From NCBI RefSeq assembly GCF_900199515.1, contig NZ_LT963434.1, positions 1,832,180 through 1,864,179 on the forward strand: a DNA stretch of 32,000 nucleotides. The letters run 5' to 3'. Numbering within the stretch: position 1 is the first letter of the stretch; each line of letters starts with the position of its first letter. This DNA comes from Massilicoli timonensis. GTDB lineage: Bacteria > Bacillota_I > Bacilli_A > Erysipelotrichales > Erysipelotrichaceae. Below the pieces are notes generated by a model that worked only from the letters and a program-made list of their open reading frames with translations, did no database searches and was not told where the DNA came from. This document shows positions 9,566 through 19,471 of this stretch, one piece after another. The translations under genes and the position numbers were made by a program.

Positions 9566-10894
9566 ATGGACTATGTTTGGATGCAGTTTGAGAAACAAAA
9601 AGGGAAAGCGCTCTATCAGCAAATTCATGATTTTTTCGTAGAACAGTTATTAAGCGGTTATTGGAAGCAGGGCGATCATTTGCCTTCGATCCGCCGTTGT
9701 GCCGGTCTTTTGTCGGTATCGCTTACTTCTATTAAAAATGCTTATGCACAGTTGGAGGAGGAAGGCTATATTGAAGCGCTGCCGCGGCAGGGTTACTTTG
9801 TTTGTGTAAGTGAAGCAGGGGTAAATCTAAGAAAAGAACTGCTGCGCAGCGATGAAACAGAACAAAAGCCGCATTTCCAATATGATTTTAAGACATCGGC
9901 GATCGATGAGGCGAGCTTTGATTCCCTGAATTGGAAACGCTGTGTGCGTTTCGCCATGGAACAGGAGGATCTTTTGGAATATGGAGAGGTGCAGGGAGAG
10001 ACCGTGCTGCGTAAAGCTTTGCAGCGTCATGCGTACGGGTACCGCGGCATTGCCTGTCATGAAGATCAGATTCTAGTAGGAGCAAGCGTGCAGACGCTGC
10101 TGTATCAGCTTTGCGGCTTATTAGGCAAAAGAAAAATCATTTATATGCACACACCGCCCTTTTCACAGGCAAAGCAGGTATTTGAGGACTGTGGATGGGA
10201 AGTGCATTTATGCGATGTAACGGCGCTCACCCAAAACGACTGGGAAAAGATGTCTTTTCTATATTTGCATACGGTTGCATTCGGGGATGAGAAAGCACCA
10301 ATGCCAAGGCATTTGCGTAAAACGTATTGTGAATTAGCCAAACGGCATCATGTATATTTGATCGAAGATGATAAAAACGGGGAACTGCGTTATGTAAGAA
10401 GGAGTGAGAGCGCTTTGTTTGCGGCTGATGAAGGGGAACGGGTCATCTACCTCAGCACTTTCTCCAAACTGCTGGCGCCGTCCTTACGGATCGCTTATAT
10501 GATCCTGCCGCAGCCGTTAAAGCAACGCTATGAGGCGAAAAAAAGTGATTATAATCCGACTGCCTCTAAGATGGAGCAATTAGCATTGGCACGTTATTTG
10601 ACCAATGCGCACATGGAAAAGCATTTGAATCAGCTGCGGAAACGCTATGCCGAGAAGTATCGTAAAATGGCAGAACTGCTGCAGCGATCGGTACCGCATT
10701 GGGAATGGGTGCTGCATGAAACAGCTTTGCGTATCCATGTTCGCAAGGCATCCGTATTACCTGATGAAATACCCGAAGAAATCGCTTATGATGAAAATGC
10801 AGAAGAAATCATCTTGTCTTTTGCGAAAATCGACAGTAAAGATATGGAAAAGGCCTTTCAGCTGTTTGCCGATCATAAAATGGCAGGAAAATGA
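9566..10894 (+). CDS. MocR-subfamily GntR transcriptional regulator (HTH + class-I aminotransferase-like PLP domain), PdxR-like
   Basis: N-terminal GntR winged HTH (LPSIRRCAGLLSVSLTSIKNAYAQLEEEGYIEALPRQGYFV). The C-terminal fold-type-I domain carries the PLP-lysine motif STFSK. The start is probably ATG 9566, 7 nt after GAGG; the ORF track uses TTG 9545. Confidence 0.85.
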   Translation: MDYVWMQFEKQKGKALYQQIHDFFVEQLLSGYWKQGDHLPSIRRCAGLLSVSLTSIKNAYAQLEEEGYIEALPRQGYFVCVSEAGVNLRKELLRSDETEQKPHFQYDFKTSAIDEASFDSLNWKRCVRFAMEQEDLLEYGEVQGETVLRKALQRHAYGYRGIACHEDQILVGASVQTLLYQLCGLLGKRKIIYMHTPPFSQAKQVFEDCGWEVHLCDVTALTQNDWEKMSFLYLHTVAFGDEKAPMPRHLRKTYCELAKRHHVYLIEDDKNGELRYVRRSESALFAADEGERVIYLSTFSKLLAPSLRIAYMILPQPLKQRYEAKKSDYNPTASKMEQLALARYLTNAHMEKHLNQLRKRYAEKYRKMAELLQRSVPHWEWVLHETALRIHVRKASVLPDEIPEEIAYDENAEEIILSFAKIDSKDMEKAFQLFADHKMAGK

Positions 10895-10953
10895 TAACGT
10901 GTGTTTCTGTCTTTCTCCAGCATGCTTCTTGTGGAGGAGGCTCATTTTTGCTG

Positions 10954-10982
10954 TTGCAAGAATGGATGGATAATGATATAAT
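10954..10982 (+). promoter_or_regulatory. Sigma-A-type promoter of the tRNA operon
   Basis: TTGCAA (10954-10959), 17-nt spacer, TATAAT (10977-10982). Confidence 0.7.
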
Positions 10983-11040
10983 ATCTTGGCTTGATAAAGC
11001 AGTATTTACGATCTGGAAGAATATGGGTTTCCATACAATT

Positions 11041-11115
11041 CCGCTTATAGTATAAGGGATAGTACGAACCCCTCCTAAGGGTTAGATTCAGGTTCGAGTC
11101 CTGATAAGCGGGCCA
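11041..11115 (+). tRNA. tRNA-Arg (anticodon CCT)
   Basis: Hand-folded cloverleaf. Acceptor CCGCTTA/TAAGCGG, D stem GTAT/GTAC, anticodon stem AACCC/GGGTT with loop CTCCTAA, T arm TCAGG-TTCGAGT-CCTGA, encoded CCA. Confidence 0.9.
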
Positions 11116-11149
11116 TATTTAGGGATCCACTACCAGACAGTATCATCTT

Positions 11150-11224
11150 GCGTCCATGGTGAAAAGGATATCACATCAGATTCCGGTTCTGATATTGCGG
11201 GTTCGATTCCTGCTGGGCGCGCCA
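11150..11224 (+). tRNA. tRNA-Arg (anticodon CCG)
   Basis: Acceptor GCGTCCA/TGGGCGC, D stem GTGA/TCAC, anticodon stem TCAGA/TCTGA with loop TTCCGGT, T arm GCGGG-TTCGATT-CCTGC, encoded CCA. Confidence 0.9.
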
Positions 11225-11230
11225 TTTTTC

Positions 11231-11316
11231 GCAGATGTGGTGGAATGGCAGACACGCTACTTTGAGGGGGTAGTGGGCGTATGCCCGTGTGGGTTCAAGT
11301 CCCATCGTCTGCACCA
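11231..11316 (+). tRNA. tRNA-Leu (anticodon GAG), class II with a long variable arm
   Basis: Acceptor GCAGATG/CGTCTGC, anticodon stem CTACT/GGTAG with loop TTGAGGG, 15-nt variable arm (TGGGCGTATGCCCGT), T arm GTGGG-TTCAAGT-CCCAT, encoded CCA. Confidence 0.9.
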
Positions 11317-11326
11317 GTTATCGATG

Positions 11327-11349
11327 AAGTCCCAAAAGGGACTTTTTTC
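11327..11349 (+). terminator. Rho-independent terminator after the tRNA operon
   Basis: AAGTCCC (11327-11333), AAAA loop, GGGACTT (11338-11344), then a T-run. Confidence 0.8.
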
Positions 11350-11395
11350 AAAAACAAGGACATATAGTAAAAAGAAGCGGAAAGGAGCCTGTTTC

Positions 11396-11692
11396 ATGAA
11401 AGTAGTAAAAACCCCATCGTCTGTTTATGTGCTGTACGCACTTGCGATCGTTTTTTTATGTATTGCCACTTTTGAGATCTTTGGCTGTTACAGCGATATT
11501 CGATCTTTGATCGATTCTAATGATTTGATCGTATCGGAAAACATGACGTTCATTATTTCTTATTATCTGGAGCATGTTTCCGTGTATTTCGGCATCGCTT
11601 TTTTGCTTTATGCGGCAGGTGTGATCAGCGCTAAGCTCAATGAAGTGCATCAGGTCGTCTATCAGATGGCGGAAAAAAGCAAAGATAAATAA
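11396..11692 (+). CDS. Small membrane protein (98 aa, 2 TM), unknown function
   Basis: RBS AAAGGAG lies 8-9 nt upstream of ATG 11396 (MKVVKTPSSVYVLYALAIVFLCIATF...). The upstream 80 codons of track ORF 11156..11692 run through the tRNA genes and are an artefact. Confidence 0.7.
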   Translation: MKVVKTPSSVYVLYALAIVFLCIATFEIFGCYSDIRSLIDSNDLIVSENMTFIISYYLEHVSVYFGIAFLLYAAGVISAKLNEVHQVVYQMAEKSKDK

Positions 11693-14367: not shown

Positions 14368-14370
14368 CGA

Positions 14371-14412
14371 AAAAAAAGCAAGCCGTGTTTTGATGCAAGC
14401 GACTTGCTTTTT
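14371..14412. terminator. Bidirectional terminator between convergent genes
   Basis: AAAAAGCAAG ... CTTGCTTTTT outer pairing with an inner GCAAG-CGA-CTTGC hairpin (14395-14407). It is flanked by an A-run and a T-run. Confidence 0.7.
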
Positions 14413-16567: not shown

Positions 16568-16878
16568 TTAGTTTCCTCCTTTACGCGCTTACCAGTATAG
16601 TACCGAACCCTTAAAATAAGATGAAAGATCAAAAGAAATTGCTTTTTATTTGATTATTTTTTCATGTTCGTATGGCACATAGTACAAAGCATGGGATCGG
16701 TATCATTCGATGTAGATAAATATGGGGAAATATGGTATAGTGTAAACAAGCAAAGATAGCGTCTGTAAAGAAGAACAGACGAGAAGGAGGAAAAGATGAA
16801 AAAGAAAGTATCGTTGCTTTTGGCAAGTCTGTGCCTGATGCTGGGCATGGTAGTCAAGTCGAACATGATTTTTGCCCA

Positions 16879-16889
16879 GGGGGGGGGGG
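16879..16889 (+). repeat. Homopolymeric G11 tract
   Basis: Counted directly: g16879-g16889, flanked by a16878 and t16890. Confidence 0.95.
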
Positions 16890-18000
16890 TACTGTAAATC
16901 AGTACTCTGAAACTGAGGCAGGTGGCCTAACGCTAAGTGATTGGGTTTATACAGAAACAAGTGATAAGATCACATTAACGGAATACACAGGGAATGCGGT
17001 AAATGTTGTGATCCCATCTGAATTTGCGGAAGCGCCGGGTAAATCGGTAGAGATTGATACTAGTAATTACCGGGCTCTGTACAGTTTATTTGATAATCTC
17101 AAAAAAGAGGATCCATCAGGAGATCCGAAATACTATAATGAATTGGTATCGTTGAAAATCGGCACAACGGATAAAAAAGTCACTGTGACACATCGAGATA
17201 TGTATCGTTTGCTCTCTCCTAGTCCTTATGAAAGTGATCGCTATTTTTTTACGAAATTAGTAGAAGCTGATCTAAGCGGCCTGGATACATCGAGCGGATT
17301 TGGCGATAGATTAGATATTAGTGAGGGATTTGTTTCCTGTTATCGTTTAGAAAAGGTTGATTTCAGTGGCTGGAATTGGGATGATTCACGTTGGGGATCC
17401 CTTTTTCTAAATTGCTGGAATCTTAAAACCGTTGTCGGTATGGAGAAGATGACTGAAGATGAGAGATATAGTGACAATAATTTTCTTAGCACCGAGTTTC
17501 AGAATTGTTACAATCTTAATATTTTTGATTTAAGCGGATATGCGAACGGTTACGCTTTCAACCATTATCCTTATAGTGCTTTTATGTTAGAAAATGCAAA
17601 AATACCGGTGCCGACGATCATTATTACAACCTGTCAAGGGTTGATGCACTTTGACCAAGCAGACAGTATTTTTGGCAGAACCCCATACTATGCAAAAGTT
17701 GTCTATCACAGTAATGACGGAGCATTTGCAGATGGAAGCACCAATAATGAGAAACTGTTATATCAATCAGATCATTTTATCTACTCTACAATGGAAGAAG
17801 CAAAACAGGATTTTACTTTTACCGGGACAGAAATCGTAAAAGATGCACCATCTGCTGTGCTTAACAAAGAGGGGTTCGTATTTAGCGGCTGGTATTTAGA
17901 TGAAGCATGTACGATGCCGTTAACAGAAACCGATATGATCGATTTTATGACGGTAGAAGATGGTACGTTACAGTTATATGCAGGATATAAAGAAGTAACA

Positions 18001-18075
18001 CCGGAAGAGCCGGAAACACCGGAAGAAAAGCCGACAGAGCCGGAAGAAACACCAAGTGAACCGGAGGAGAACCCG
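18001..18075 (+). repeat. Imperfect CCGGA(A/G)GA repeats encoding a Pro/Glu/Thr-rich stalk
   Basis: CCGGAAGA-like units occur at 18001, 18010, 18019, 18040 and 18061. They translate to PEEPETPEEKPTEPEETPSEPEENP. Confidence 0.6.
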
Positions 18076-18268
18076 AATACACCAAATGAAGAGGAAAAGG
18101 GAGAAAGCAATATCGAGGAGATCAAGAAAGAGGAGAGTGAAGCAGTAAATACAGGAGATGAAGTAAGCAAGGGAATGTATTATGTACTGCTAGGGGGAAG
18201 TGTGATCGTATTCGCTGCAATGTTACGCAAGAACAGAAGAAGCGAACAGCAGTAAAACAATGCAAATG

Positions 18269-18301
18269 AGCAGGCAGAATGATTCTGTCTGCTTTGTTGT
18301 T
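18269..18301 (+). terminator. Rho-independent terminator
   Basis: AGCAGGCAG (18269-18277) / CTGTCTGCT (18285-18293), including one G:U pair, followed by TTTGTTGTTT. Confidence 0.75.
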
Positions 18302-18421
18302 TGATAGGAAGAGATGTGCGTTCCCATAAAGTGGGACCTGTGTGATAAACGCCGCAAAGTCTTTCTTTTTTTGTGTATTTTGTTATAATAGAAAAGAATT
18401 TATAGTGAAGGAGTGTAATTT

Positions 18422-19471
18422 ATGGACCTTTCAAAAGTAACGATCGCATCCAGCTCTTTAACATCTGCCATTCAAAAAGACTATAAAAATGCCATTGGCT
18501 GCGGCAGATGTGATGAGGAAGCGCTTGCCTTCGCGACGCGTGGCTTTCAACAGCTGGCTGTGGAAGATACCTGCACGGCTTACTGCGCATTGGCGCTGAT
18601 CATGCACCAACTGGGCAGACTCAACGATACCATGAAACAGAAGGTCATAAAAATGATCGATGCAGGCGGCGATCTTACCTATTGGCAGGCAGCCGGCGCT
18701 GATGAAAAGACCGTTTTGAAACGGGAGAAAGAATTACAAAAAGTAAAAGATAAGATCATGAGCGAACAGGGCGCACCGAAAAAAGTGATGAGTCCGTTCT
18801 GTATGCGCTGTAATTTTCATGTAGGCGATGTGATCGCTTATCCGCTCGATGAGCAGAAAACAAACTATGCGGTATTTGTCGTTGTCGCTTTGCATCATCA
18901 GATCAGCAGGATCACGGCATTGTCGCAGGATCGCCTATATGTTTGTTTCCATGATACCTTATTTGATCATCTGCCAAGTAAAGATGAATGTCAGAGCTTG
19001 CGCTATATGGAATTAGCGGCAGATGCGCAAGACCGCATAAAACGATTTGTGCGTGAGCTTTACTTGCCTAATAAAAGTGCGGCAGCGCGTTTCTTTGCGA
19101 ACTGTACCAGGATTAGCTATCGCCATGATGTATTTGAGAGCGTTGATGAAAGAGAGGATATCATCTTAAATGTAAAGACGCTCGAAGAAACATTGCCGGC
19201 TGTGTATGAGAACTATCAGGGAAACAGTGAAGTTCATATGGATAGGGGAGAAAGCCTTGCCAAGACCGGCAAAAAAGTAAAAAGCGGTCTTGTAAAAAGT
19301 GGGCGATATGGCAAGCAGGCTTTGATAAAAAGCGGGCAGCTGGTACGCAAGACATGGAAAAGCGGCAGTAATCGATTCAAGAAATCAGCGGTTTCTTTAG
19401 GCAAGCTTGCACAGCGCGATCATACAAAGAAAGATGCGGAAACGGAAAACGCTGAAAGAAAAGAAGAATAG
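18422..19471 (+). CDS. Hypothetical protein (349 aa) with a Lys-rich C-terminal tail
   Basis: Extended -10 TGTTATAAT (18382-18389) and RBS GAAGGAG. No family recognised. The C-terminal tail has four x-K-S-G repeats. Confidence 0.75.
   Translation: MDLSKVTIASSSLTSAIQKDYKNAIGCGRCDEEALAFATRGFQQLAVEDTCTAYCALALIMHQLGRLNDTMKQKVIKMIDAGGDLTYWQAAGADEKTVLKREKELQKVKDKIMSEQGAPKKVMSPFCMRCNFHVGDVIAYPLDEQKTNYAVFVVVALHHQISRITALSQDRLYVCFHDTLFDHLPSKDECQSLRYMELAADAQDRIKRFVRELYLPNKSAAARFFANCTRISYRHDVFESVDEREDIILNVKTLEETLPAVYENYQGNSEVHMDRGESLAKTGKKVKSGLVKSGRYGKQALIKSGQLVRKTWKSGSNRFKKSAVSLGKLAQRDHTKKDAETENAERKEE

Follow-up and report, generated by a model that had tools for sequence, protein, structure and literature searches.

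What does an uninterrupted run of 11 guanines (G11) do between a signal peptide and the body of the protein that the peptide should export? The question is raised by a gene in a 32-kb stretch of DNA from Massilicoli timonensis, a member of the Erysipelotrichaceae. This whole stretch is referred to below as the window, and coordinates are those of its plus strand unless another contig is named. In this gene, a ribosome-binding site (RBS) and a Sec-type signal peptide open one reading frame, the body of a putative BspA-type leucine-rich repeat (LRR) surface protein lies in another, and both frames pass through the same G run. The original prediction, made from the window sequence, read the run as a slipped-strand phase-variation switch that is currently OFF. 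Comparison with related sequences bore this out, and we consider it highly probable that the G11 tract is a hypermutable slipped-strand switch acting on the translation of a BspA-type LRR surface protein, and that the switch is OFF in the window assembly. The prediction was too narrow in one respect: the window gene does not stand alone and is one of at least 5 loci with the same cassette.

A guanine run between two reading frames

The gene begins with the RBS AAGGAGG and an ATG that opens a 27-residue signal peptide (Table 1), in which inspection revealed a basic n-region (KKK), a 16-residue hydrophobic core, and the residues I-F-A before the predicted cleavage site. The next codon is CAG (Gln), the last base of which is the first G of the tract. 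With 11 G, the signal-peptide frame runs into a TAA after 33 codons. A second frame is open through the tract (..CPGGGGTVNQ.., ..CPGGGGTVNQYSE..) to the TAA at 18253–18255 and includes a body of 454 codons. All of these elements had been placed correctly in the original prediction except the first start codon of the long open reading frame (ORF) at 16831, which indeed has nothing RBS-like 5' of it but is a GTG, not the ATG that had been claimed.

Changes of tract length made in silico had the following outcomes: (i) one additional G (G12) fused the signal peptide to the body in a single ORF of 487 aa, and (ii) the loss of 2 G (G9) gave an ORF of 486 aa, both as predicted; (iii) the −1, 0, and +2 states all led to truncation, with a signal-peptide ORF of 37 aa for G10 and 33 aa for G11. 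When in frame, the tract encodes a linker of 3 to 4 glycines that occupies positions +2 to +5 of the mature protein. Such fusions exist in nature: the signal peptide is in frame with the body in the ON alleles P0028, P0034, P0012, P0141, P0145, P0173, and P0178 (P numbers denote protein entries and L numbers loci).

The G11 run is not a chance event. It is the sole run of G or C longer than 5 in the window, in which a first-order model predicts approximately 0.0016 runs of 11 or more, and none of 300 Markov simulations of the window reached a run of 11; the prediction had rightly called the run very unusual. The codon GGG is the least used Gly codon in the window genes (13%). In 119 kb of non-redundant M. 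timonensis-like DNA, G/C runs dwindle to a single run of 6, and the longer runs are only those of 8, 10, 11 (3 times), and 12, every one of which is located at a switch site. Control Bacillota loci totaling 219 kb contained one G/C run of 8 or more.

Tract-length variation and rival explanations

Tract lengths were taken from assembly consensus sequences and were read from DNA at 19 loci, including the window, and from protein N-termini elsewhere. The closest comparison is the most informative: L053 has no mismatches to the window over 4,418 bp, and the sole difference between the two is a G10 tract in place of G11. L052, with 5 single-nucleotide polymorphisms (SNPs) in 7.4 kb, also carries G10. 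The only other indels between the window and orthologous contigs are an intergenic A8/A7 difference and an in-frame 21-nt repeat in the stalk of the protein, and no difference was found in the remaining homopolymers of at least 6 bases, of which each comparison covered 14 to 41. The A8/A7 run lies at 14370–14377 between a hydrolase gene and an ABC ATPase gene. Among the 19 loci, the tract is G11 in the window, L001, L006, and L056; G10 in L052, L053, L004, L005, L007, L008, L055, L047, L050, and L051; G9, and thus in frame, in L002 and L054; G8 in L003 and L048; and G7 in L049.

A census of the related proteins, in which the forms within eleven 90%-identity clusters were classed by N-terminus and weighted by contig count, revealed the same spread of lengths. 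The out-of-frame (OFF) forms were G7 (1 contig), G8 (15 contigs), G10 (179 contigs, the commonest length), and G11 (83 contigs), and the in-frame (ON) forms were G9 (15 contigs) and G12 (5 contigs). In-frame forms thus account for approximately 7% of contigs and are present in 5 of 11 clusters. For 14 of 57 distinct protein bodies, the tract had more than one length; one body of 485 aa was found as G8, G9, G10, G11, and G12, and an allele of the chromosomal site of the window gene (site A, described below) as G9 (P0028 and P0034), G10 (P0030, 76 contigs), and G11 (P0031). Because the same bodies carry different tracts, the tract changes much faster than amino-acid substitutions accumulate.

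We propose the following mechanism. The gene would be expressed from its own promoter-like site and RBS and would begin with its own Sec signal peptide; the first G of the tract completes the Gln codon. A tract of G9 or G12 would put the signal peptide in frame, and the protein would then be exported, cleaved after IFA, and retained at the surface through a C-terminal signal of the xNTGD/hydrophobic/basic type. In the G11 and G8 states, translation would stop 2 codons past the Gly codons (..GGGVL*), and with G10 or G7, 6 codons past them (..YCKSVL*), so that any other length within G7–G12 would yield a peptide of 33–37 aa and no surface protein. The protein would not be made in the OFF states because the body has neither an RBS nor an export signal of its own. 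Slippage during replication would shift the tract one G at a time, probably at a high rate, and the change would be heritable and reversible.

Three other explanations of the tract have to be weighed against such a switch. The least probable is that a frameshift in a chance homopolymer inactivated an unused gene, which is now decaying. This would fit the window copy, which is out of frame, of which NCBI calls only an internal fragment of 415 aa, and whose degenerate LRR core fails the DUF285 profile PF03382; moreover, 2 relatives are truly broken, namely L048 (approximately 10230–10331 of its contig, minus strand), a remnant that has lost its RBS and ATG and has a stop 42 codons after a G8 tract, and P0037, in which an extra frameshift in the stalk replaces the anchoring signal. 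A few such copies are normal for such families. The body is open for all 454 codons in the window, and 17 of the 18 assessable copies have an open body, of 454–834 codons, that ends in the anchoring signal. The ratio of nonsynonymous to synonymous substitution rates (dN/dS, Nei–Gojobori) is 0.38 between two G11 orthologues at site A and ranges from 0.28 to 0.45 in eleven orthologue and paralogue comparisons; judged by these ratios, the body is under purifying selection despite the OFF states. In-frame versions of the very same allele also exist, as the G9 forms P0028 and P0034 of the allele seen as G10 in P0030 and as G11 in P0031 demonstrate. None of the outcomes that the original prediction had named as refuting it, such as an invariant tract or a dead gene, was encountered among the related sequences. 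That the true tract is constant and in frame (G9 or G12), its lengths having been miscalled in sequencing or assembly and the product being an ordinary constitutive surface protein, is also highly improbable. Homopolymers of 10 or more are error-prone, any single assembly may be in error, and all 3 loci of the type strain read G11, which is possibly systematic. The type strain is a human stool isolate, the genome of which was obtained by Illumina MiSeq sequencing, several assemblers, and gap closing (PMC6796691), a procedure that leaves room for such an error. Miscalling does not readily produce 6 lengths (G7–G12) across many independent Illumina assemblies, a spread beyond plus or minus one, nor single states backed by as many contigs as G10 for one allele (76) and G11 for another (36), and the other homopolymers of 6 or more agreed between contigs except for the one A8/A7 run. 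It would also leave unexplained a pure G run, built of the rarest Gly codon, at 5 loci of a genome in which G/C runs elsewhere do not exceed 6.

The highest-rated of the 3 alternatives, because out-of-frame lengths dominate, is recoding, which we nevertheless regard as unlikely: the tract would be fixed within a cell line, and full-length protein would be produced at a low constitutive level through slippage of RNA polymerase or +1/−1 slippage of the ribosome. The out-of-frame G10 and G11 together account for approximately 88% of contigs; the purifying selection on the bodies implies at least some expression; and 10–11 identical bases, with GGG in every register, would permit slippage in any register. 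By contrast, the tract length differs between otherwise identical alleles and takes all 3 frames, including G9 and G12, which is unexpected for a tuned recoding site, and rare ON subpopulations suffice to explain the purifying selection. Known bacterial sites of transcriptional slippage are, in addition, mostly A or T runs. Recoding may coexist with a slipped-strand switch as leakiness of its OFF state.

Several observations weigh against the slipped-strand switch proposed here. All tract lengths come from assembly consensus sequences, in which long G runs are prone to error. Only approximately 7% of contigs have an in-frame form, and G10, the length seen most often, is an OFF state, which means either that OFF is favored in vivo or that expression is not set by the DNA frame alone. 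The 3 family members in the type-strain genome (P0025, P0110, and P0161) all read G11 despite distinct SNPs in their cassettes; this is unexpected under independent switching and could reflect chance, gene conversion, or an assembly effect. The window allele fails the DUF285 profile, with no PF03382 match at E ≤ 0.1 for the joined protein or at E ≤ 0.01 in the family scan, and its sorting signal is sub-threshold (12.2 versus 18.15 for srtB_target and 12.3 versus 20 for Gram_pos_anchor, PF00746). Since both kinds of profile failed, the surface location of the window protein is deduced from its family; its export signal was judged by inspection.

The cassette family and its protein

The same 5' cassette was found at at least 5 chromosomal sites with different neighbors: (i) site A (the window, L001, L052, and L053), flanked by an FtsX ABC permease gene and the pyrB side; (ii) site B (L003–L005), flanked by a small lipoprotein-like ORF and MgsA; (iii) site C (L002 and L006–L008), flanked by glycogen phosphorylase and PHP; (iv) site D (L055), flanked by pheT and a metallophosphatase gene; and (v) site E (L056), flanked by a BglG-type antiterminator gene and Fic. 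The cassette consists, in this order, of the promoter-like site, a 7-bp hairpin, the RBS, the signal peptide, the G run, and approximately 100 nt from the start of the body. Four of the sites (A, B, D, and E) share it from approximately 85 nt 5' of the ATG, at the promoter-like site, and site C shares it only from the hairpin onward. The signal peptide is near-identical in all paralogues, and the hairpin is kept at all 5 sites, at site C through a G-U pair despite the differing promoter region. The 3' ends of the genes (repeat domain, proline/glutamate-rich stalk, and anchoring signal) are also conserved in the family; the LRR core is not. At least 3 members come from the genome of the window itself: P0025 (16831–18255 of the window), P0110, and P0161. 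Because the same cassette precedes different LRR cores at at least 5 loci, each locus could switch independently, and a cell could then display many combinations of surface proteins.

Most homologues in metagenome assemblies start with "MPDAGHGS..HDFCPGGGG" or "MPRGGG", which are out-of-frame readings of the signal-peptide region, and a minority start with the in-frame signal peptide. In P0017, a more distant relative that has no G run, the signal peptide is joined directly to the body, which shows that the fused reading is the ancestral and functional architecture. NCBI annotates the window gene as a 415-aa "hypothetical protein" (WP_102269252.1, 17007–18255) with an internal start codon; the entries P0026, P0029, P0018, P0022, and P0024 likewise have internal starts and are named "hypothetical", "InlB B-repeat-containing", or "partial BspA family". 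As the frameshifted signal peptide is missed in annotation, the surface repertoire is under-annotated. A search of a genome collection with an exact DNA pattern of the window gave no match, and a protein-pattern scan of the same collection gave only distant Listeria-Bacteroides-repeat matches in other Bacillota, the source genome being seemingly absent or masked. The paper describing the species reports a 3.12-Mb genome with 53% G+C (PMC6796691), and the window has 43% G+C and lies on a 2.09-Mb contig; these figures seem not to agree.

Comparison between strains revealed how the cores may come to differ. At site B (L003 versus L004, approximately 9800–11600) and site C (L002 versus L007), the flanks are 97–100% identical (100% at site B) for over 1 kb to either side, whereas the gene cores of the same pairs are only 23–70% identical, with synonymous divergence (dS) of approximately 0.7–0.8. 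Near-identical flanks around a divergent core point to allele replacement via recombination in the conserved gene ends at the 5' and 3' sides, so that in our proposal LRR cores would be exchanged between strains in addition to being switched. The allele in L054 (contig CANTYB010000004.1 of the metagenome-assembled genome GCA_947853975.1) is in frame (G9) and of the site-A type, and the genes that follow it, MgsA, PNPOx, and NusG_II, are those downstream of site B; on the 5' side, the contig breaks off 12 nt before the ATG. L054 represents either an allele that moved between sites or a chimeric assembly across repeated gene ends.

The body of the window protein comprises 4 parts (Table 1). The LRR core, which an identity profile identified as the segment that varies between paralogues and alleles, is short in the window allele, with approximately 3–4 degenerate repeats. 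PF03382 was matched by 13 of 14 aligned family members (best E 1.3e-72), several of which also matched LRR_5; judged by these profiles, the family is BspA/DUF285 and the window allele is a degenerate member of it. The DUF285/BspA repeats of the original prediction thus hold for the family and only in part for the window allele, and both export and LRR features of the joined protein are present at the family level. An AlphaFold2 (AF2) model built on the family alignment had a mean predicted local distance difference test (pLDDT) score of 63.9 and was confident for residues of approximately 10–190 and moderate up to approximately 330. The best Foldseek matches of this model were the TpLRR protein 6mlx (E 3.9e-3, probability 0.99), 4gt6 (an LRR surface protein of F. 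prausnitzii), and PcpA, and nearly all other matches were LRR proteins; the scores were weak and the TM-scores (template modeling scores) low, with none at E ≤ 0.001.

The predicted Listeria-Bacteroides-type repeat corresponds to a segment with a WYLDEACT motif that is invariant in the family, and it stays below the curated cut-offs in the window protein: PF09479 scored 21.2 bits for the joined protein and 21.3 for the body alone against a cut-off of 27 (E 3e-4), and TIGR02543 scored 16.9 against 20.95 bits. Six of the 14 family members matched this repeat at E < 0.01. The predicted proline/glutamate/threonine-rich repeat stalk is real, and its length is polymorphic between strains owing to a 21-nt indel at 18067 that keeps the frame and gives L001 7 additional aa. 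For the sortase-type sorting signal, the predicted layout was found and the LPXTG and SrtB profiles were not reached: the C-terminus reads AVNTGD-EVSKGMYY-VLLGGSVIVFAAML-RKNRR, that is to say, a motif, a hydrophobic span, and a positive tail. Across the family, the T-G pair is invariant and the tripartite layout is retained. A different surface protein of M. timonensis, which is encoded at a neighboring locus and ends in APNTGD, exceeds the TIGR01167 cut-off of 15.9 (full protein, 16.8 bits; C-terminal fragment, 22.8 bits), so xNTGD is plausibly the sortase motif of this organism, and the window protein may be anchored by its C-terminal signal.

The remaining features of the locus are listed in Table 1. 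The site at the 5' edge of the cassette resembles a promoter by consensus and may serve as one. At gathering thresholds, the sole Rfam matches in the window were five tRNAs; the 5' untranslated region (UTR), including the hairpin, had none. The terminator-like hairpin at the 3' side makes the gene look monocistronic. The 349-aa ORF at 18422–19471 was rejected as part of the unit: it has neither a family match nor an export signal, the terminator-like hairpin lies between, and the other family sites have different neighbors. A lipoprotein signal was rejected by inspection, as neither ASLC nor ASIC has a small residue at −1, and a G-quadruplex role of the tract was rejected as well, as one G run cannot fold alone.

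Table 1. Features of the switch gene in the window
Feature	Coordinates	Strand	Remarks
Promoter-like site: TAGATA, 17-nt spacer, TG-extended TATAGT	16713..16741	+	consensus scan; homology between sites starts here
7-bp hairpin CGTCTGT..ACAGACG in the 5' UTR, directly 5' of the RBS	16760..16781	+	predicted −9.7 kcal/mol
RBS AAGGAGG	16784..16790	+	invariant at all family sites
Sec-type signal peptide MKKKVSLLLASLCLMLGMVVKSNMIFA, 27 residues, ATG 16796	16796..16876	+	predicted cleavage between A and Q
G11 homopolymer (putative switch)	16879..16889	+	exactly 11 G; lengths G7–G12 in related copies
Body, N-terminal part: conserved module (TVNQYSETE..VNVVIPSEF..), then degenerate BspA/TpLRR-type LRR core	16891..17844	+	alignment with DUF285-positive paralogues
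TAA closing the signal-peptide ORF in the G11 (and G8) state	16895..16897	+	33-aa product, ..AQGGGVL*
Listeria-Bacteroides-repeat-like segment (..GWYLDEACT..)	17845..17949	+	WYLDEACT motif invariant in the family
Proline/glutamate/threonine-rich stalk of 9- and 21-nt repeats	17983..18141	+	Tandem Repeats Finder (TRF) periods 9 and 21 at 18001–18065; modelled disordered
Putative C-terminal anchoring signal: AVNTGD, hydrophobic stretch, RKNRR, stop	18142..18255	+	layout by inspection
Intrinsic-terminator-like hairpin and T-rich tail	18268..18304	+	predicted −19.9 kcal/mol

Relation to known phase-variable systems

A second poly-G tract is present at site B, exactly between TTGACA and TACAAT ("ttgacaaaaacgctG(n)tacaat"), where it gives spacers of 18–21 nt: G12 in L003 (6301–6312), G13 in L004 (6266–6278), and G10 in L005 (6268–6277). 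The tract lies approximately 80 nt 5' of the gene of a 572-aa protein that has a signal peptide, an APNTGD anchor passing TIGR01167, and a sub-threshold pectate-lyase-like adhesive domain. From its position, the tract resembles a phase switch that acts through the promoter spacer on another adhesin, and its presence in the same species indicates that the organism uses such tracts more than once. A wider picture in the style of Opa or Vlp surface variation is possible, although we advance it only tentatively: at least 5 BspA loci behind a shared, gene-converting cassette and at least one LPXTG adhesin operon behind a promoter-spacer poly-G would all switch independently, their cores would be swapped between loci and between strains, and most would be held OFF in the gut by pressure from the host (immunoglobulin A, IgA) or from phages.

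Repeat-driven phase variation is textbook biology in mucosal pathogens and mycoplasmas, and Mollicutes are commonly placed near Erysipelotrichia. Our literature search found no description of phase variation in Massilicoli or Erysipelotrichaceae, nor for this gene family; the mechanism is classical, and the lineage and the gene family are undescribed for it. If the Opa/Vlp-style picture is true, this would be the first described homopolymer "phasome" in an Erysipelotrichia gut commensal, and it would suggest that the contingency-locus lifestyle of the related Mollicutes is not confined to wall-less parasites. With this family, a human gut commensal that can be cultured provides a clear case with several loci. 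Genotyping the switch is simple, since a single homopolymer within a conserved cassette has to be scored, and hundreds of tract observations, with a strong bias to OFF, can already be drawn from public metagenomes. It would become testable whether host immunity, phages, or niche select the surface-protein repertoire of gut Bacillota. Genes now annotated as truncated "hypothetical" or partial BspA proteins imply that the surface repertoire of the species is under-called.

In Neisseria, the poly-G of pilC and the CTCTT pentamers of opa are located in or next to the signal-peptide region and set the frame of a surface adhesin. The opa genes, moreover, occupy multiple loci with conserved 5' ends, switch independently at each locus, and recombine between their variable cores. 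The M. timonensis family resembles PilC/Opa of N. gonorrhoeae and N. meningitidis in having a repeat tract at the signal-peptide region and multiple loci with conserved 5' ends. It differs in that (i) PilC/Opa are outer-membrane proteins of Gram-negative mucosal pathogens, whereas the present genes belong to an Erysipelotrichaceae gut commensal and encode an LRR protein with a putative C-terminal wall or membrane anchor, and (ii) the tract lies just after the predicted cleavage site and not inside the hydrophobic core.

In Mycoplasma hominis Vaa (poly-A) and Helicobacter pylori OipA (CT repeat), a frameshift in the 5' or signal-sequence region switches an adhesin. The window gene would share with Vaa and H. 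pylori OipA/SabA the ON/OFF control of a putative adhesin by frameshift near the 5' end; the proteins, repeat types, and lineages are different, and each of those is a single gene with no shared-cassette family. N. meningitidis porA has a poly-G in the promoter spacer, the length of which sets the promoter spacing (PMC3639595). In this respect, porA parallels the second tract at site B, and the window gene is instead a candidate translational frame switch.

With regard to the protein, matches to PF03382 and LRR_5 link the paralogues to the BspA (Tannerella forsythia)/TpLRR/DUF285 group of LRR surface proteins, and the window allele does not reach PF03382. The nearest precedent for this protein class is Candidatus Mycoplasma girerdii, the BspA-like proteins of which phase-vary through mostly dinucleotide repeats such as (CA)n, with most copies predicted to be OFF (PMC5476646). 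Both organisms have BspA-like LRR proteins in many copies, frameshifts in simple sequence repeats, and an OFF majority with an ON minority. In Ca. M. girerdii, the repeats occur at varied positions, and variation was seen at the read level within one population (PMC5476646); by contrast, M. timonensis has one poly-G at a fixed position in a shared cassette, with variation seen between assemblies only.

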